Assembly: GCA_029856525.1 (NCBI GenBank)
Contig: JAHQXC010000039.1
Coordinates: 1-11,727, forward strand
Direction of reading: 5' to 3'
Length of the DNA stretch: 11,727 bases
Origin: Candidatus Odinarchaeia archaeon
Lineage (GTDB): Archaea > Asgardarchaeota > Odinarchaeia > Odinarchaeales > Odinarchaeaceae
The notes under the pieces: model-generated
What the model saw: only the letters and a program-made list of their open reading frames with translations
What the model was told of the DNA's origin: nothing
Database searches by the model: none
Program-made: the position numbers and the translations under genes
Shown here: positions 1 to 10,488 of the stretch, piece by piece
How positions within the stretch are numbered: position 1 is the stretch's first letter
Layout: each line of letters begins with the position of its first letter

Positions 1-495
1 CGGTAACATGATTCTTGTTTTTGGATCCACCCATACCGAAGGGTAACTATTGACTACAGTAGCCTGTATCCTGTACGCCCTCTTGAGAGCTAAGCCTTTT
101 TGTGCTACATCTGATGATAAAACATATCTGTCGCCAGTCTTCAGAAAGCCCTTTTTAATAAGCTCTGTACGCACCCTGTTCTGCCATGCCCCTGCAATTA
201 TATTACCACTTATCGCGTTTGTGACCATCTTCAAGCCATATTTAGAATAATTCCTTAAGACACTTTCAGCTTGAGCCGGTTCTAGGTTCAATAAAACTAT
301 ATCGAAGCTTTCTTCTAGAGCAGTCGGTACAAGTGTAGCATCATACCCTCTTCTGTTTACAAAACTGACTACCGATTGCAGAAAAGCTCTTCTTTCAATT
401 CTCTTTTCGATATTTAAGGATTCAAACCTGATAAAGCATCCTTTAACGTTGATTGGGACTGGTTGTTGCGATTTAAAAATGTTCGTATATGTCAT
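1..495 (-). CDS. ago: Putative long prokaryotic Argonaute, N-terminal 165 aa (N and L1 domains); runs off the left edge of the window
   Basis: Hand translation from ATG at 495 has no stop to position 1: MTYTNIFKSQQPVPINVKG...RTELIKKGFLKTGDRYVLSSDVAQKGLALKRAYRIQATVVNSYPSVWVDPKTRIMLP. The N-terminal TNIF resembles the TNHF/ANFF first strand of Ago/Piwi. GFLKTGDRYV...RAYRIQATVVNSYPSVWVDPKTRIM resembles the N-to-L1 segment (PIWI-like QQIGRNYY...PGFTTSI...IMLCTDVSHKV; TtAgo-like LLEVDPAYRIL). It starts 1 nt after the upstream stop. PAZ/MID/PIWI are outside the window. Confidence 0.68.
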   Translation of the reverse strand, partial: MTYTNIFKSQQPVPINVKGCFIRFESLNIEKRIERRAFLQSVVSFVNRRGYDATLVPTALEESFDIVLLNLEPAQAESVLRNYSKYGLKMVTNAISGNIIAGAWQNRVRTELIKKGFLKTGDRYVLSSDVAQKGLALKRAYRIQATVVNSYPSVWVDPKTRIMLP

Positions 496-496
496 A

Positions 497-1201
497 CTAC
501 ATCAACTTCCTTTGGAACGATTCAAACTTGAGAGAAGGGCCGATTATTTTTTCCACAACATATTTAAGAGTCACTATCTGCTGTTCAAAAGTAAAGCCAG
601 AATTGTAGATCGTAATTATTCCCCTTTTATCAAAACCTACTCTCGCCTCCTCGGGTATTTCTTTCAACCTCACTTTCACTTTGCTTAATGGTTCGCCTCC
701 ATAGTCCTCATAGAATTCTGTACTAATTATTTCACGTCCGATACACGAAATCCTGTCTACACGATCCATGCCTGGAATAACGTCTAGCTGGGAAACATCC
801 GGACATTTCTCGATAACGCTCCGCAACGCGCTTTCATCGAATTTTACTTTGCTAAGAACAAAATCACTTATAAAGTGCCTCTCTATGAAGTTAATGACTC
901 GTTGTTCTATGTCCTTTGTGCAGTTGCCTATTAATAAGAAGTTTTCTTCAAGAAGAAATATTATCGGAATCTCGCGGGATGCCTTAACAGACTTCTGTCC
1001 TTCAAGGGTTGAATAGGTGAGCTCATATTCGAAAGTAAACATGAACCCGATTGATCCATTGACAACTGCTAGTGTGTCAGGTAATGTACCTTCGCGAAAT
1101 TCCTTTTTATCCTCTATAGCAGGGAATGACTTGACTTTTTCAGTTATTTCCTTAACATCAATTTTCATCCTGGGCAGGGGAATAAGTACATAGCTAGGCA
1201 A
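497..1201 (-). CDS. Hypothetical protein (~234 aa), alternating alpha/beta pattern reminiscent of RdgC/DUF4747/KwaB-like folds
   Basis: Track ORF 497..1210. AGGAGG (1211-1216) directly abuts the GTG at 1210, so the in-frame TTG at 1201 (9-nt spacing) is the more likely start. It overlaps the ATPase stop. The fold remark is inference from hydrophobic patterning only. Confidence 0.8.
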   Translation of the reverse strand: MPSYVLIPLPRMKIDVKEITEKVKSFPAIEDKKEFREGTLPDTLAVVNGSIGFMFTFEYELTYSTLEGQKSVKASREIPIIFLLEENFLLIGNCTKDIEQRVINFIERHFISDFVLSKVKFDESALRSVIEKCPDVSQLDVIPGMDRVDRISCIGREIISTEFYEDYGGEPLSKVKVRLKEIPEEARVGFDKRGIITIYNSGFTFEQQIVTLKYVVEKIIGPSLKFESFQRKLM

Positions 1202-2315
1202 GATATTCACCCTCCTGCATGATTTTTAATTGGATGAGAGGTTTTACCTCATCTTTTATGCGGTAAAAATATGAACGCCCAATTCTTTCGAGTTTAATAA
1301 ATTTGCTTCTATTCAGTATTCCAAGGTGATAGGAAACAGTAGCTTTGTCTTTTTCAAGAATCTCCACCAGTTTTGAAGGCCGCAGTCCACGTTCATCACG
1401 CTCTAATAATATATGCTTGAGAATGAGAATCTGGAGTTCTGATAGTTTGCTTACTCTGTCAAAAAAGTTCTCAATGCCCATGGTTCTAGCTGCTAACTCA
1501 ACAGCTGTTTCGTTGATGTTTTTAGAGCGAGCAAGGAAGGCTTCGCTGAAGGTTCTTATGAAGAGCCCTATAGTCAACTTTGGGATCCCATAGCTAAACG
1601 AGTGAATCTTTTCAATAACTTCCGTCTTGAGCTGAAACTTACCGTCACTTACATACTTCAGAATAACTGAAATGAAATGAGAGGTCGCAGCCTCGTCAAG
1701 AGGTTCTATGTGGATTTCTTGGGAAGTTTCAAGACATTCTTCTACTTCGTCTTTAAATAAATTCCAATGTTCTGGTGTCCAAGACGTAATGACAACACCA
1801 TTTTTAAGTATGTTAGCAATCTGTCTTAATGAATTCACTATGTCCTTGTCTTTCTCACATGAATCTATAAATATGACATCAAGATGTTCCCTTTTGAGTT
1901 CGTCCAAAACCCGATAAAGTACCTGCTCCTCTTCTTCTCCTTCTAAAATTTCACTAAACTTTGACGCATCTATCAGTTGATGTTTAAGGGAGATGTTTCT
2001 TTCCTGGAGAAACGATTTTGTCAATTGAATAAGATGACTTTTTCCAGAGCCGACTACTCCCACAATAGGGATGTGATAGATTTCGCTTTTTTCTTTACTG
2101 TAGAAGCCGATAAATTGACCTATTACCTCAATTTCCTTTTCTAGGTTGACGGTAAATTCTGGATTTTCGAGCAAGTATTTCGAAATAGTTTCCACACTGA
2201 ACTTTAATGGATTAATCCCAAGTGATTTAAGCCATACATTAAAGCTTTCGACCTCTCCACTTAATCCTTTTTCGAAAGCTTTTTCAAATGCTTCAAACAG
2301 TCTTCCTTTTTTCAT
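1194..2315 (-). CDS. ExeA/GspA- or Cdc6-like AAA+ ATPase with C-terminal ArsR-type winged helix-turn-helix
   Basis: N-terminal WLKSLGINPLKF (ExeA-like GLxxNPF); Walker A GVVGSGKS (2037-2060); Walker B-like VIFIDS (1860-1877); lid motif IHSFSYGIPKL...AVELAA; C-terminal LSELQILIL...PSKLVEILEKDKATVSYHLGILNRSKFIKLERIGRSYFYRI wHTH. Confidence 0.85.
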   Translation of the reverse strand: MKKGRLFEAFEKAFEKGLSGEVESFNVWLKSLGINPLKFSVETISKYLLENPEFTVNLEKEIEVIGQFIGFYSKEKSEIYHIPIVGVVGSGKSHLIQLTKSFLQERNISLKHQLIDASKFSEILEGEEEEQVLYRVLDELKREHLDVIFIDSCEKDKDIVNSLRQIANILKNGVVITSWTPEHWNLFKDEVEECLETSQEIHIEPLDEAATSHFISVILKYVSDGKFQLKTEVIEKIHSFSYGIPKLTIGLFIRTFSEAFLARSKNINETAVELAARTMGIENFFDRVSKLSELQILILKHILLERDERGLRPSKLVEILEKDKATVSYHLGILNRSKFIKLERIGRSYFYRIKDEVKPLIQLKIMQEGEYLA

Positions 2316-2332
2316 GCTAATCTAACCGTTCA

Positions 2333-2348
2333 AACTATTAAAATAGTT
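2333..2348. promoter_or_regulatory. Inverted repeat AACTATT-AA-AATAGTT, candidate operator of the ATPase-wHTH operon
   Basis: Perfect 7-bp inverted repeat with a 2-nt spacer between the TATA box and the ATG at 2315. AT-rich, so a chance occurrence is possible. Confidence 0.4.
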
Positions 2349-2358
2349 AAAACTAAAA

Positions 2359-2366
2359 TATTTAAA
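2359..2366 (-). promoter_or_regulatory. TATA box (TTTAAATA) for the ATPase-orphan-Argonaute operon
   Basis: Consensus archaeal TTTAWATA on the minus strand, 43 nt upstream of the ATG at 2315. Confidence 0.55.
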
Positions 2367-2411: not shown

Positions 2412-2437
2412 GGCGCTCATGCCATACTATGAGCGCC
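2412..2437. repeat. Perfect 9-bp inverted repeat GGCGCTCAT / ATGAGCGCC with 8-nt loop, covering the IS110 start codon
   Basis: Arms at 2412-2420 and 2429-2437 are exact reverse complements. Confidence 0.75.
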
Positions 2438-2527
2438 TATATTGGTTTGGATGTGCACAAGGATTGGACTTTCGCTACTGTCCTCGACCAAGATGGTCGA
2501 GTTGTTGTTTAGAGGAAGCTAGCGAAG
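2429..2527 (+). pseudogene. IS110-family (DEDD RuvC-like) transposase N-terminal remnant
   Basis: ATG 2429 reads MSAYIGLDVHKDWTFATVLDQDGRVVV*RKLAK, matching the IS110 N-terminal pattern Y(V/I)G(I/L)DVHK...a.vld.dG.vv. There is an in-frame TAG at 2510-2512 and similarity is lost after ~2527. Confidence 0.8.
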
Positions 2528-2757: not shown

Positions 2758-3813
2758 TTGACTAGGGAGCTTAAAGTATATGAAGTCGACGAGTTTGATA
2801 AATGCCCTAACTGCGGGGGTGAGATTTATCGGGGTCGTTTGAATTGTAGATGGGGGATGATTTTCTACTATCGTTTAAAACATGATCTTCTACTTGATAA
2901 GCATGGGCGTCCTATTATTTTTGAAGAAAACGTTCGTATCGGAAACCCTGTTAAAAGCCGATTCGATCATGCTGCTATATGCAGGAATTGCCTTTTTTTA
3001 TTTTTTAAAGCTATTAATTACGATCCGCTTAGAAAAGGTTTTGAAGAACGTTTTAACAAGACGCGAAAAGAACTTTACAAGAAGGCGGTGGAGGAGTCTA
3101 AGAAGCCATTAAATTTTGATAAATGCCCGGTTTGCGGTAATAAAATAGATAAAGGGTATTTATGTGATAATCCTCCTTCAGGCTGCACACCCGGGTTAGT
3201 CTTCTATATGCAGCTGGATAAGCCTATCGGAGGGAGAAAAGAGGAGCCGATTGTTGTAGCCCAAGACTTTCTAGGACATTTCTATGAGGCATATTTCTGT
3301 GATACCTGTTTCACAGCTATCGGTAGAATAGAGAAATTCCTCCCCTTCGCCGATGATTTCTGGGATCGTTTTGAAGCCCCTTCTAAATCAACAGTTATTA
3401 AATTAGAACGCCGGCTTGAAAGGTTAGATCAGTTAGAAAATCTTCAAAACCCTGAAAGAGGGGTAGACGCGGGTTTATCAGAGGCTAGAAAAGAATTTGA
3501 AGAGTATGAGAATCCGATTGAAGAGGATTCTGAAGACCGCTTATTAGAATCTGTTCTCGATGAAATCTCAATAGGCGGCGGAGACATCCCTGAATTTAAA
3601 GTTGAAGATTCAAATGAACGTGTTAAATCAAATGATATCGGTGTCGATGGTCTTGAACTGGAGCCTAAACTACCCTACGAGTATCTTCCTTCAGTGAAAT
3701 CCTGCCTTGAGCCACCTGACAGGTTTCAGTTCTGTCCTAATTGCGGTGTCGAGAACAGTTCTAAGCAAAATGTATGCCGGAAATGCGGGACTGAATTGCC
3801 CTCAATCAAATAA
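2758..3813 (+). CDS. Multi-zinc-ribbon protein: two DUF6487-like CPxCG...CxxC modules, acidic linker, C-terminal double zinc ribbon
   Basis: FDKCPNCGG...AICRNC and FDKCPVCGN...YFCDTC repeats; E/D-rich linker; C-terminal CPNCGVENSSKQNVCRKCG; TTG start with a strong SD. Confidence 0.8.
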   Translation: MTRELKVYEVDEFDKCPNCGGEIYRGRLNCRWGMIFYYRLKHDLLLDKHGRPIIFEENVRIGNPVKSRFDHAAICRNCLFLFFKAINYDPLRKGFEERFNKTRKELYKKAVEESKKPLNFDKCPVCGNKIDKGYLCDNPPSGCTPGLVFYMQLDKPIGGRKEEPIVVAQDFLGHFYEAYFCDTCFTAIGRIEKFLPFADDFWDRFEAPSKSTVIKLERRLERLDQLENLQNPERGVDAGLSEARKEFEEYENPIEEDSEDRLLESVLDEISIGGGDIPEFKVEDSNERVKSNDIGVDGLELEPKLPYEYLPSVKSCLEPPDRFQFCPNCGVENSSKQNVCRKCGTELPSIK

Positions 3814-3996
3814 TTGTGCATATATCTCATAATTTTTTTCAACCGCTTCCATAATTTTTTTACCAATATTCGAATTCTTTTTAATAATCGTGTAACCTTT
3901 TTGATTTATAGTAGCATCGAAAATATGGTTGCCTTCTATATAGAATTTTAGACGTGTATTCGAGAGGTCAGGTCTCACATATATTCGAATTTTTTT
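3802..3996 (-). CDS. C-terminal domain of the PINA ATPase, encoded in the -1 frame after an A9 run
   Basis: Frame is bounded by TAA (3997-3999) and TGA (3802-3804) and reads KKIRIYVRPDLSNTRLKFYIEGNHIFDATINQKGYTIIKKNSNIGKKIMEAVEKNYEIYAQLFD. This resembles the PINA-family C-terminal pattern v.iyv....lFtATv.kkG.i.ikK.S.iGk.l..A. Confidence 0.7.
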   Translation of the reverse strand, partial: KKIRIYVRPDLSNTRLKFYIEGNHIFDATINQKGYTIIKKNSNIGKKIMEAVEKNYEIYAQLFD

Positions 3997-5423
3997 TTAA
4001 GGGGTTTAACTTTAACTTTAATGTTATCTTTCACTTTCTGAGAGCTGCGGCTTGTTTTCAACTCTTTATCTGAGATTAAAGGTATGACGACAACCTCTTC
4101 GCCGTAACTGTATACCTCATATTCTAAACGGTTTGTTTCGAAGTCTCTAACTTCTATAACAGGTCTAGCTAAATCCGCTTGAACCATTCCGGTGGGAATT
4201 TTAACAGTTGTACTTATAGCGTACACTTTTCTAATCTCGCCTTCTTCTATAAATATTATAGTGTCTAGAACTCTGCTAATCAATCCTAATTCAATTCTAC
4301 CTATAAATCTTTGAAGAGCGTCTATCGGTTGGCTTGCATGAACAACGCCGATCATGTTAACACCGCTGAATCTTAAATCAGCGTATATTTTGAAATCATT
4401 AGTTTTACGCATTTCATCGTATATCACGTAGTCAGGTCTTACAAGAAGAAGTATATCAGCTGTTTTCTCCATGCTATCGCTCAACGGTGAGTATTGAGTT
4501 ATATCTGGGCCTACTTGTAAGTCTCTCGGGCTCTCCATGGTCTTCACAATCTTACCTTTACTAGCATAGTATTCAGCTAAAGCCGCGCTGAATGTGCTTT
4601 TACCAGCTCCAGGCGGTCCGGCTATTAAAATTCCTTCAGCTCTTTTTTCAAGCCTTGACTCTAATTTACTAGATAAGTTATACGCTTTCAGATCGACTTT
4701 AACTATAGGCTTCACCGCTGTTATCTCTAAGCCGTCTGAAAAAGGCGGTCTAGCTATAACTATTCTCATATTCCCTAACTGGATAACCGTTGCTGCGGGT
4801 TCATCGATTTCGATAAAACTATCCTTCTCTTTTAAAGCTCTTTCATATATTTGTAAAGCTATATCTCTGAGAAGCTCACCTTCCACAGGTTTATCAGATA
4901 ATTCAACCAGTCTCCAATCACCAGGACTCCCCTTCTTAGCCTTCGGTGGAACCCCCTCTCTTAGATGAACTGACATCGTATCGCTGTCGAAAAATTTTTC
5001 AAGATCTAGCTTTAATGCTTTACCCGGTTTAGCTACATAATTAACTTTAACCCCTTTAATCTCAGCTATATCCGCTTGAACTCTATCACTCGTATATAAT
5101 TCAGCTGAATTCTCTTCAGCGCATTTAATTATTATCTCATCTAGTTCCCCGCTAGGTCCAAGCTTTACTTCCTCTAAAGTCGGTCTAGCCCCAACTATTT
5201 CGACTAATATGTCGCCTTTAGTTGAAAGCTCTCTTAGTTTTTTTAATTCAACTAATCCAGCGAAGCCCGCTGGTTTATGTAAATTCGCCTGGTTCTCTAT
5301 TTCAGCTATAACAGCGTTTGGAATAAGAATCTTACAGTTTTTTAATTCCCCTTTCTCTATGGTTTGCGAAATATATCCGTCTATTATGATGCTAGTATCA
5401 GGTACTATTTTTCTAAAATTCAA
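3975..5423 (-). CDS. PINc/VapC-family ATPase (PINA; PIN domain plus PilT-like ATPase), apparently frameshifted near the 3' end
   Basis: PIN start IVPDTSIIIDG...IPNAVIAEIENQAN; Walker A GPPGAGKSTF; TMESPRDLQV; Walker B YVIYDEMR; GVVHASQPIDALQRFIGR. The TTG start overlaps the hisS stop by 4 nt. Confidence 0.92.
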   Translation of the reverse strand: MNFRKIVPDTSIIIDGYISQTIEKGELKNCKILIPNAVIAEIENQANLHKPAGFAGLVELKKLRELSTKGDILVEIVGARPTLEEVKLGPSGELDEIIIKCAEENSAELYTSDRVQADIAEIKGVKVNYVAKPGKALKLDLEKFFDSDTMSVHLREGVPPKAKKGSPGDWRLVELSDKPVEGELLRDIALQIYERALKEKDSFIEIDEPAATVIQLGNMRIVIARPPFSDGLEITAVKPIVKVDLKAYNLSSKLESRLEKRAEGILIAGPPGAGKSTFSAALAEYYASKGKIVKTMESPRDLQVGPDITQYSPLSDSMEKTADILLLVRPDYVIYDEMRKTNDFKIYADLRFSGVNMIGVVHASQPIDALQRFIGRIELGLISRVLDTIIFIEEGEIRKVYAISTTVKIPTGMVQADLARPVIEVRDFETNRLEYEVYSYGEEVVVIPLISDKELKTSRSSQKVKDNIKVKVKPLKKKFEYM

Positions 5424-7668: not shown

Positions 7669-8178
7669 ATGAAAAATTCGCGTGGTGGTATTTTGCAGTT
7701 TGAAGAGGAGTTTAATGAAAAATTTAAGGATGTGAAAAGACTTGTCATATTAGGAGTCGGCAATATAATACGCGGGGATGACGGTGTCGGGTCTAAGATT
7801 ATCCGATCGTTGAAAGGTAAACTAGATGAAAGAGTGAAGCTTATAGACGGCGGCCCTGTTCCTGAAAGCTTCACAGATGTTGTTAAAGCATTCAACCCCA
7901 CTCATATTTTAATAATAGACGCCGCGGATATGGGTAAGAAACCAGGTTGGATTGAATTCATAGGCGAAGACCAGATTTTAAACACATCTTTTTCAACTCA
8001 TCAAATGCCTTTAAGCCTTCTAGTAGAGTATTTTAAATACGAGACGAAGAGTAGAATATTTTTATTAGGAATTCAACCATTAACTAATTCGTTTGGAGAA
8101 AAGTTAACTCCAGAGGTGGAGGCAGCGAAGAATCGGATCGTTAAACTAATACTTAAATATTTTAAAAAACCCTCTTAA
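7669..8178 (+). CDS. hycI: Hydrogenase maturation endopeptidase, HycI family
   Basis: LVILGVGNIIRGDDGVG; IDGGPVPE; LIIDAAD; STHQMPL; LLGIQP. An alternative start at TTG 7693 follows GGTGGT. Confidence 0.9.
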   Translation: MKNSRGGILQFEEEFNEKFKDVKRLVILGVGNIIRGDDGVGSKIIRSLKGKLDERVKLIDGGPVPESFTDVVKAFNPTHILIIDAADMGKKPGWIEFIGEDQILNTSFSTHQMPLSLLVEYFKYETKSRIFLLGIQPLTNSFGEKLTPEVEAAKNRIVKLILKYFKKPS

Positions 8179-9451: not shown

Positions 9452-9532
9452 TTTTACACGCGGTATTCACGGTATGAGTTAGGATATTAACAGGTAAATC
9501 TATGAGGCGGAGTTTACTCTAGAAATTGGAAA

Positions 9533-9631
9533 TGGCGCCGGGGGCAGGATTTGAACCCGCGAGGTGCAAAGCACCACTGGCTTTCCTGTCCTCTCTCGAG
9601 GCCAGCGCCTTAACCGCTTGGCTACCCCGGC
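9533..9631 (-). tRNA. tRNA-Ser(CGA) with a 12-nt intron at 37/38 and encoded CCA
   Basis: Minus strand GCCGGGG/CCCCGGC acceptor stem, G73, CCA; CTGGC/GCCAG anticodon stem with CT-CGA-G; long variable arm GGTGC-TTT-GCACC; T arm GCGGG-TTCAAAT-CCTGC. Confidence 0.95.
9583..9594 (-). other. tRNA intron (AGAGGACAGGAA)
   Basis: Removing these 12 nt between G37 and A38 restores a 7-nt anticodon loop CUCGAGA. Confidence 0.85.
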
Positions 9632-9729
9632 ATACGTTACCTAATAAATATATTATTTTACTGGAAATAATAAAACTCTATAAGCGTTCTCTCTTATATT
9701 TTATAGATAAAATTATTAGAGGTATATAT

Positions 9730-10440
9730 ATGAGTTTTGAACTTGAAAAAGAACTTGTAGGTAAACACGCTGCTGAACTAGTGGAAGACGGTCAGGTGAT
9801 CGGTGTAGGCAGCGGGACCACAGTATCTTATTTTATAAAACACCTTGGCGCGCGTTGTAGAAGAGAAGGTCTTAAAATATTGGCGGTTCCCAGCTCTTAT
9901 CAATCCTATTTTGAACTTATCAAAGCCGGTGTTGCTTTAACTACTCTCGACGAGTATGATACTCTCGATTTGACAATCGACGGTGCTGATGAAGTGGATG
10001 AAGATTTAAATCTGATAAAAGGTGGGGGTGGAGCTCTAACCCAGGAAAAAATAATTGGAACATACACTAAGAAGTTAATTATTCTTGTAGATTCATCTAA
10101 ATTTGTTAAGAGAATAGGGGGCGCCCCTATACCAGTTGAAGTTTTACCTAAAGCTTTATCCCCTGTCTATAAAAAAATAGAATCGTTCGGTGGTAAACCT
10201 GAAGTTAGAATGGCTAAGAGAAAACTAGGCCCGGTTGTCACAGATAACGGCAATTTTATTTTAGACTGTAAATTTGAAGAGATAATCGACCCAGAGTCTC
10301 TAAATACGAGAATTAAGATGCTTCCAGGTGTTGTGGAAACCGGCTTATTCATAGGCTTAGCTGATAGGATCCTAATAGGTAAAGAAGGAGCCGTTATTGA
10401 AAAAGTAAAGGAGCGGGCCCGACCGGACTTGAACCGGTGA
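9730..10440 (+). CDS. rpiA: Ribose-5-phosphate isomerase A
   Basis: GVGSGTT; TIDGADEVD; LIKGGGGALTQEK; PIPVEV; VTDNGNFILD; PGVVETGLF. The true start is ATG 9730 (GAGGT SD). The track start at 9526 runs through tRNA-Ser. Confidence 0.97.
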   Translation: MSFELEKELVGKHAAELVEDGQVIGVGSGTTVSYFIKHLGARCRREGLKILAVPSSYQSYFELIKAGVALTTLDEYDTLDLTIDGADEVDEDLNLIKGGGGALTQEKIIGTYTKKLIILVDSSKFVKRIGGAPIPVEVLPKALSPVYKKIESFGGKPEVRMAKRKLGPVVTDNGNFILDCKFEEIIDPESLNTRIKMLPGVVETGLFIGLADRILIGKEGAVIEKVKERARPDLNR

Positions 10441-10488
10441 CCCCTGGCTTAGGAGGCCAGTGCCCTATCCTGGCTAGGCTACGGGCCC
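10414..10488 (-). tRNA. tRNA-Arg(CCT), no encoded CCA
   Basis: Minus strand GGGCCCG/CGGGCCC acceptor stem, G73; CTGGC-CT-CCT-AA-GCCAG anticodon arm; ACCGG-TTCAAGT-CCGGT T arm. Confidence 0.97.

Follow-up and report, generated by a model that had tools for sequence, protein, structure and literature searches.

What are an AAA+ ATPase with a winged helix-turn-helix (wHTH) domain and an orphan protein doing in front of a long prokaryotic Argonaute (pAgo)? The question is raised by one end of contig JAHQXC010000039.1 in the draft genome of Candidatus Odinarchaeia archaeon [GenBank assembly GCA_029856525.1], which consists of 1.32 Mb in 127 contigs and is 93% complete. The window analysed here is this entire contig (C61), 11,727 nt in length. 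An earlier note on the same DNA had proposed an unrecognised Argonaute system in which the ATPase and the orphan load, regulate or act downstream of the Argonaute. Positions 1-2366 of the window comprise the promoter and the three leading genes of a pAgo cassette that recurs in archaea, and cover just the front third of it. The cassette is real and conserved, and as a variant of pAgo system it is apparently undescribed. We read it, at what we judge to be an even chance, as a chain leading from a switch/sensor pair to the Argonaute and from there to a DNA end-resection machine.

Gene arrangement in the window

All three genes are on the same strand, as the earlier note had reported, namely the minus strand. 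The first (1194..2315; P0001) is an open reading frame (ORF) for an AAA+ ATPase of 373 aa, whose C-terminus is predicted from profile matches to form an ArsR-type winged helix. The second (497..1201; P0010) encodes the orphan, a 234 aa protein with a predicted RdgC fold. The third (1..495), which is open to the contig end, includes the first 165 codons, corresponding to the N domain, of a divergent long pAgo that was recognised by its similarity to full-length relatives.

A longer ORF for the orphan (497-1210; P0002) begins at an upstream GTG. The start was placed at the TTG at 1201 on two grounds: 13 homologues share an MPSYxLIP N-terminus, and the gene as called in the record likewise encodes 234 aa. 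The orphan gene therefore overlaps the ATPase gene, which has its stop codon at 1194-1196, by 8 nt. The orphan stop codon (497-499) is separated from the Argonaute ATG (495-493) by a 1-nt gap, and both junctions agree with those previously recorded. The trio is translationally coupled, and the space between the genes is too small for another promoter. A single TATA box had been claimed ahead of the three genes, and a TATA-box-like element, TTTAAATA, is indeed seen by direct reading of the sequence at 2359..2366 (minus strand), 44-51 nt before the ATPase ATG (2315).

The Argonaute family

The 165 Argonaute codons in the window share 52-57% identity with the N-terminal part of each of six proteins of 766-777 aa, all of which match the PADLOC pAgo family PDLC02436 (E 1e-46 to 1e-49); the best match (E 2.7e-49) spans residues 339-758. 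The AlphaFold2 (AF2) model (pLDDT 75, pTM 0.71) of P0004, the full-length relative nearest to the window fragment at 57% identity, matched KmAgo in Foldseek with E 4e-28 over ~800 columns, as well as CbAgo, PliAgo, Siwi and hAgo2. The full-length relatives are predicted from the model to fold as complete long Argonautes with the domains N-L1-PAZ-L2-MID-PIWI, and the identification of the third gene as a long Argonaute stands, with the N domain in the window and the remainder visible in its relatives. A separate contig in Logan, derived independently from a sample of the same type, extends 602 nt past the left end of the window.

The family is divergent. Pfam Piwi found no match in the genome under study, the full-length relatives matched neither Piwi nor any other Pfam family, phmmer searches of the PDB with the Argonautes of L027 and G033 returned no match, and the family profile gave only weak matches to PDB entries, namely VbAgo and short pAgos. 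Argonaute identity across the loci carrying the trio is as low as 23% (L027). An hhalign comparison of 12 family members with four Piwi-positive Argonautes from the same phylum gave a probability of 99.6 and maps the invariant residues D524 (HDVSR), D603 (KDG) and Q750 (TQNLG) onto catalytic positions 1, 3 and 4, the fourth being Gln in 12/12 family sequences. E559 is invariant at the expected glutamate finger; this stretch aligns poorly and its loop has a low pLDDT, and the assignment is the least certain. The MID and PIWI domains and the state of the catalytic tetrad, which the earlier note had marked for checking, can be read from the full-length relatives: both domains are present, and the predicted PIWI site is an invariant D-E-D-Q, outside the accepted DEDX tetrad in which X is D, H, N or K (PMC6299218, PMC11291487). 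The Gln and Lys of the MID 5′-phosphate pocket are matched by Q461 and K491 (hhalign), and Y441 with K443/R445 is found where the Tyr-Lys pair is expected, which at the level of motifs suggests a Y-K/R-Q-K-like pocket.

The cassette in related genomes

Six other contigs carry genes for the ATPase, the orphan, Argonaute, NurA, HerA, Mre11 and Rad50 in this order (L002, L003 [=L004], L005 [=L006, L007], L026, L027 and L048), the L048 contig ending inside mre11 with Rad50 beyond its end. Junctions between the seven genes range from a one-base overlap (L026) to a 15-nt gap, and the order and overlaps of the coupled trio are conserved in all six. The unit in these relatives is therefore one of seven genes ending in NurA-HerA-Mre11-Rad50, and not the three-gene unit that the earlier note implied. 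Restriction-modification, GmrSD and integrase genes are abundant in the cassette flanks, and the trio is spread patchily across phyla. The region 5′ of the L002 cassette (L002:90-6009) includes genes for a tyrosine integrase, a zinc-ribbon transcription-factor-like protein, ParB_N and a split Orc1/Cdc6 (160 and 144 aa), and looks like an integrated element abutting the cassette.

Further arrangements retain the Argonaute and differ in what follows it. In L020 (Bathyarchaeia), the family Argonaute is followed by a Cas4/Dna2-like SF1 helicase, Mre11 and Rad50, and a divergent AAA-wHTH gene is located upstream. In L022 (Hydrothermarchaeota), it is followed by a UvrD-PD-(D/E)XK (AddA-like) protein. 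G033 (L042, C25:19000-38000) encodes a distant 754 aa Argonaute with KDG and QNL motifs followed by nurA-herA-mre11-rad50, while genes for a 374 aa ATPase-wHTH and a 272 aa protein without a recognised fold are transcribed divergently from the Argonaute gene; the latter protein gave sub-threshold CENP-L/RdgC leads only (Atlas). A second, more canonical NurA is encoded on C71 of G033. Judging from these predicted gene products, the link between this Argonaute lineage and enzymes of double-strand-break resection recurs with three different enzyme sets in several phyla.

The ATPase and the RdgC-like protein

Matches of the ATPase to Pfam AAA_22, AAA_16 and HTH_5 are all under the cut-off, as are those to the NCBIfam ArsR/SmtB (1.2e-7) and Hda families under their curated cut-offs. 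A profile of 20 family sequences gave significant matches in the PDB to ArsR (4e-7), DnaA (4e-6) and the RuvB lid (1e-5); the lid resembles those of RuvB, ExeA-type and DnaA proteins and the wHTH resembles ArsR. The product of gene 1 is predicted to be an initiator/switch-type AAA+ ATPase (DnaA/RuvB/Cdc6 type) with an ArsR-type wHTH, in agreement with the ExeA/Cdc6-like ATPase-wHTH described earlier. Walker A is intact (GxxGxGKS at residues 86-93). Walker B reads hhhhD-S-C-E, with D151 invariant and no Glu directly following. With no catalytic Glu in Walker B, a DnaA/Hda-like AAA+ part and a wHTH at its C-terminus, the predicted protein looks more like a slow ATP switch than a motor. The likeness to DnaA, Hda and Orc1/Cdc6 lies in the combination of an AAA+ core with a DNA-binding domain, the profile similarity to DnaA, Hda and the RuvB lid being weak; in the cassette ATPase, however, Walker B is D-S rather than D-E or D-D, and there is no evidence for a role at origins. 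The wHTH is also similar to that of Csa3. CapW and BrxR are front regulators of defence operons, and the ATPase gene shares with these and with Csa3 its position as the first gene of the operon.

The orphan was modelled with confidence (AF2 pLDDT 90, pTM 0.86). The top Foldseek match in the PDB is E. coli RdgC (2owl; E 3e-8, TMq 0.58), followed by CENP-L/Iml3 and lambda RexA, and the Atlas RdgC (PF04381) cluster superposes with a TM of 0.70. No Pfam match was found at E up to 1, including RdgC PF04381, and no NCBIfam or PADLOC family was assigned. Because PF04381 is not matched, the orphan is called RdgC-like by fold only, and on the strength of the model is taken to be RdgC-like without being a member of the RdgC family, which bears out at the level of fold the RdgC-like guess of the earlier note. 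The predicted fold is common to RdgC, lambda RexA and CENP-L/Iml3, but the orphan is 234 aa in length compared with ~300 aa. Its family has 65 representatives among 1.8 billion proteins, mostly full-length at ~210-260 aa, and a metagenome scan with the orphan profile recovered 3 loci.

Distribution of the ATPase and RdgC-like pair

Loci with the pair were collected starting from the ATPase or the orphan alone. Ten of these were informative, with an Argonaute in 4/10, resection genes in 5/10 and a CBASS-like operon in 3/10. The pair does co-occur with Argonautes in other genomes, in accordance with the expectation of the earlier note, but it is not the Argonaute-specific partner that was envisaged, as it also heads an Argonaute-free nurA operon and CBASS-like operons.

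The Argonaute-free form is L046 (7887-15804), in which the pair is found directly before nurA-herA-mre11-rad50 and a 145-nt gap is present at the place of the Argonaute gene. In L046 the ATPase was called from 7785, probably 34 codons too far upstream; read from the ATG at 7887, the protein has the N-terminus of the family, and the repeats are ahead of its gene. In L045 (3958-17443), the pair and a 40 aa ORF precede mre11-rad50-nurA-herA, with a Rad50 of 1094 aa; a canonical 914 aa Piwi protein, a DUF2797 protein and an RNase_H_2/HHH_5 protein are encoded by divergently transcribed genes. The orphan variant of L045 (P0105) was seen on 60 contigs.

Three loci (L028, 1041-6288; L029, 340-5674; L050, 8887-14185) have the pair before a CBASS-like operon that encodes a 283 aa protein of unknown function without a Pfam family, a SMODS nucleotidyltransferase, a SLATT-like protein and a CD_NTase_C protein. 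The pair in these loci is ~37% identical, and the L028 and L050 operons adjoin TraG/TraC-like conjugation genes. In the P0087 locus, the pair is followed by small genes of unknown function. The orphan was found alone in L047, beside genes for a Schlafen-Roc protein and a giant helicase. Because the pair precedes effectors that are mechanistically unrelated, it is more simply explained as a sensor/regulator than as a subunit of one effector.

Phased repeats upstream of the ATPase gene

Between the TATA box and the ATPase ATG is a candidate operator (2316..2356, minus strand) made up of ~4.5 phased 9-bp direct repeats, TTAGTTTTA / ACTATTTTA / ATAGTTTGA / ACGGTTAGA / TTAGC, with a consensus near ATAGTTTGA. 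The units are at −41, −32, −23, −14 and −5 relative to the ATPase start and fill the 43 nt 5′ of it. They cover the place at which an archaeal transcript is expected to begin, ~25 nt after the TATA box. Related loci have TATA-like A/T-rich boxes 5′ of the repeats at a variable distance from the ATG.

A pattern-free self-match scan found a peak at a lag of 9 (0.53-0.62) in 8/8 loci of the Argonaute or nurA type, L046 being counted among the eight once its ATPase is read from the ATG that yields the N-terminus typical of the family. In 7/8 of these loci, the phased dimer RGTTNNANNRGTTNNA lies at −21 to −39 relative to the start of the ATPase gene. In the genome under study it occurs 62 times in 2.64 Mb (both strands), equivalent to 0.0012 per 50 nt, and no trimer of the pattern is found on either strand. 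The intergenic DNA around the repeats has diverged past alignment between related loci. The 9-bp array, being too short and degenerate, was missed by Tandem Repeats Finder. The only other match to RGTTNNANNRGTTNNA in the window (3422-3437, plus strand) is inside a zinc-ribbon ORF and is probably due to chance, 0.17 being expected.

The arrays resemble arrays of DnaA boxes. Head-to-tail repeats would suit a directional oligomer, for example an AAA+ protein with one wHTH per subunit, and not a symmetric dimer, and we infer that the ATPase is the repeat binder. The phased repeats at its promoter are the main reason for reading gene 1 as a putative ATP-dependent regulator of its own operon.

Location of the insertion in this genome

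The trio is an accessory, strain-specific insertion in this genome. Gene order shared with G002, a closed sister genome, is regained at window position 2758 and continues rightwards through genes for a zinc-ribbon protein, a PIN-ATPase and HisRS, whereas to the left of 2758 G002 has tRNA-Pro and other genes where the trio is located. The Argonaute and orphan profiles found nothing in three genomes of the same genus, and the orphan is present in 1/400 genomes of the phylum, all of which agrees with the accessory patch noted earlier. The boundary of the patch is marked by an IS110-like transposase N-terminal fragment of ~30 codons (2428..2527, plus strand) with an IGLDVHK-type motif. The IS110 remnant of the earlier note comes down to this fragment, and the assignment is weak, as only ~30 codons are present, positions 1-29 of PF01548 match with a sub-threshold E of 0.25 and one stop codon is included. 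Two perfect hairpins are found in the remnant, between the cassette promoter and the zinc-ribbon gene, on the plus strand, at 2412-2437 (10-bp stem) and 2483-2501 (8-bp stem).

A continuation of the Argonaute gene into the nurA operon on contig C120 was considered and ruled out, as C88, which is collinear with sister genome G001, has the first 11 codons of nurA together with the genes ancestrally upstream of it. C120 starts inside nurA, holds the only herA-mre11-rad50 of the assembly and is ~80% identical to the sister genomes. In G002 the housekeeping genes of the window are at ~653 kb and nurA is at ~1417 kb, a separation of ~650 kb around the circular chromosome, or about half of it. The window Argonaute is thus not followed by the native nurA operon, and a second set of resection genes was not found in the 93%-complete assembly. 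In the genome under study (G000; C33, C108, C88 and C120), the assembly breaks up the 5 kb upstream of native nurA, with contigs of 2.0 and 2.5 kb, and lacks ~160 nt within the 5′ end of nurA itself. The density of contig breaks near native nurA suggests strain variation in the sampled population.

Other features lie further right in the window. The gene at 3975-5423 (minus strand) encodes a 482 aa fusion of a PIN domain with a PilT/T2SSE-like ATPase; with 90% identity to its counterparts in the sister genomes, it is core and does not belong to the accessory patch. Genes for tRNAs were found at 9536-9631 and 10414-10488 (both minus strand). The first of these, at 96 nt, is long enough for an intron to be probable, and it is overlain by the 5′ portion of a long ORF (9526-10440) in which the RpiA domain begins only at residue 120, and the real start of that ORF is probably much later.

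Proposed mechanism and alternatives

The pair is considered an ATP-dependent sensor/regulator, a view that we hold to be about as probable as its negation. The ATPase would use its wHTH to bind the direct repeats head-to-tail, forming an ATP-dependent oligomer much as DnaA or Orc does, and this oligomer would set transcription of the whole operon. The RdgC-like protein may sense DNA, such as ends, gapped DNA or foreign DNA, and flip the ATPase switch. Once expressed, the Argonaute would take 5′-phosphorylated DNA guides from the co-encoded end-resection machine and mark matching invader DNA for that machine, as in DdmDE, APACE or CbAgo with RecBCD. Of the three roles offered in the earlier note, regulation is favoured because of the conserved phased candidate operator at the promoter of the pair, and loading or acting downstream of the Argonaute is less favoured. 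The fullest version of this proposal is a new archaeal pAgo immune system in which a repeat-bound sensor/switch pair turns on the operon, a D-E-D-Q Argonaute is coupled physically and functionally to NurA-HerA-Mre11-Rad50, which would both make guides and destroy the marked DNA, and the pair is a general front end that also serves CBASS-like systems. It is put forward as tentative and somewhat unlikely to hold as a whole.

Several observations weigh against this account. The window Argonaute is cut by the contig end at codon 165, and the link between Argonaute and resection genes comes from relatives and not from the assembled contigs of this genome. The predicted PIWI site has Gln as its fourth catalytic residue where D, H, N or K is accepted, and alignment of the glutamate finger (E559) is uncertain, with a loop of low pLDDT. 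The repeat motif was defined after the sequences had been seen, the loci are related by descent, and the self-match scan found the lag-9 peak in 0/3 loci of the CBASS type. In L020 and L042, the genes after the ATPase have no sequence similarity to the orphan (hhalign, orphan profile).

The pair could instead be physical partners of the Argonaute, with a clamp-loader-like AAA+ protein placing an RdgC-type ring on DNA, either feeding substrates or guides to the Argonaute or acting as its effector. RdgC is a ring-shaped DNA binder (titles of PDB 2owl and 2owy), the genes are tightly coupled through the 8-nt overlap and 1-nt gap, an Argonaute is present in 8/13 informative pair loci, and a distant ATPase-wHTH adjoins distant Argonautes in L020 and L042. 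However, the pair occurs without an Argonaute in L046 and in the three CBASS-like operons, a structural subunit shared by mechanistically unrelated effectors would be unlikely, and the wHTH of the ATPase is of a sequence-specific type with conserved repeats at its own promoter. A physical partnership is therefore judged unlikely, though it is the alternative given most weight. If the pair were a self-contained defence or surveillance system of two genes, in the style of RexA/RexB or Kiwa, that happens to neighbour other systems in defence islands, with the Argonaute working alone, the orphan standing alone in the defence-like neighbourhood of L047 would be explained, and the RdgC-fold sensors of RexAB, lambda RexA being among the fold matches of the orphan, and the restriction-modification, GmrSD and integrase genes in the cassette flanks are in keeping with this. 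The pair is nevertheless always 5′ of, co-oriented with and overlapping the next gene, leaving no intergenic space for a promoter, and has no recognisable effector domain, which makes such independence improbable.

A role in DNA repair or chromosome maintenance, in which an RdgC-like anti-recombinase and a regulator tune resection and the Argonaute processes ends or termini as proposed for TtAgo, is suggested by L046, where the pair heads nurA-herA-mre11-rad50 in the absence of an Argonaute. It is also suggested by the association of E. coli RdgC with recombination (PDB 2owy title) and by the replication and repair roles of pAgos cited in PMC12094033 and 10.1101/2020.03.01.971358. Against this, the trio is accessory, being missing from the three sister genomes, with its orphan in a single one of the 400 phylum genomes; the cassette is patchy across phyla with defence and mobile genes in its flanks, and the same pair heads CBASS-like operons on a conjugative element. 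We see only a slim chance that housekeeping of this kind is the function of the cassette.

Relationship to known Argonaute systems

DdmDE is a plasmid defence system of Vibrio cholerae composed of the pAgo DdmE and the helicase-nuclease DdmD. The cassette resembles it in layout, with a non-canonical pAgo encoded beside helicase/nuclease machinery that might degrade the DNA recognised by the pAgo; the two-part form is seen in family members L020 (Cas4/Dna2-like SF1 helicase) and L022 (UvrD-PD-(D/E)XK), outside the window. It differs in that the closest relatives have the four proteins NurA-HerA-Mre11-Rad50 and not one fused helicase-nuclease, the Argonaute keeps 3/4 catalytic residues, and the front pair has no DdmDE counterpart. 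Short pAgo systems (SPARTA/SPARSA, SiAgo-Aga1-Aga2) are further removed, the Argonautes of the cassette family being full-length, and no APAZ, SIR2, TIR or membrane protein was found in the cassettes examined (L002, L003, L005, L026 and L027).

In the cyanobacterial system APACE1, a long-A pAgo is encoded with the Cas4-family nuclease ACE1, which processes DNA guides (Mol Cell 2025, PMC12094033). Co-encoding of a long pAgo with a repair-related nuclease is common to both systems, and a similar guide-processing logic is proposed for NurA/HerA/Mre11/Rad50, but APACE pAgos have a full DEDD, one small nuclease partner and no front regulatory pair; NurA, HerA, Rad50 and ATPase are not mentioned in that paper. 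Double-strand breaks and RecBCD supply guides to CbAgo (Kuzmenko et al., bioRxiv 10.1101/2020.03.01.971358), so that a pAgo and a host end-resection machine cooperate in guide biogenesis. In that case the link is functional only, whereas the cassette is one operon with the archaeal NurA-HerA-Mre11-Rad50.

Nucleases, UvrD-type helicases and HTH proteins have been described near pAgos (Ryazansky et al. 2018), though NurA, HerA, Mre11, Rad50, SbcC and ATPase are all absent from the main text of that study. Two papers on Asgard Argonautes do not mention NurA, and HerA is absent from PMC11291487, the one checked for it; the ATPase and RdgC pair was not searched for in these papers. Literature searches on Argonaute with NurA/HerA/Mre11/Rad50, on Argonaute with RdgC, and on RdgC-like with ATPase and defence returned nothing relevant. 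The suggestion that an ATPase-wHTH and an RdgC-like protein are unrecognised pAgo partners is consistent with this, neither being described in the pAgo literature searched. The features regarded as new are the portability of the pair, the predicted RdgC fold of the orphan, the candidate phased operator, the predicted D-E-D-Q site and the location of the cassette apart from the native nurA operon.

How pAgos are supplied with guides, and how atypical pAgos bring about destruction of their targets, is known in a few bacterial cases, namely RecBCD with CbAgo, ACE1 and DdmD. The cassette joins a pAgo and an archaeal double-strand-break resection machine in one operon, and does so in several lineages and with three kinds of resection enzyme. 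With the two linked in single operons across lineages, the question is therefore directly testable in archaea. The portable front module of an AAA+-wHTH and a predicted RdgC-fold protein is common to Argonaute and CBASS-like operons, and is a candidate for a new class of switch through which archaeal defence genes would respond to damage or to invaders.

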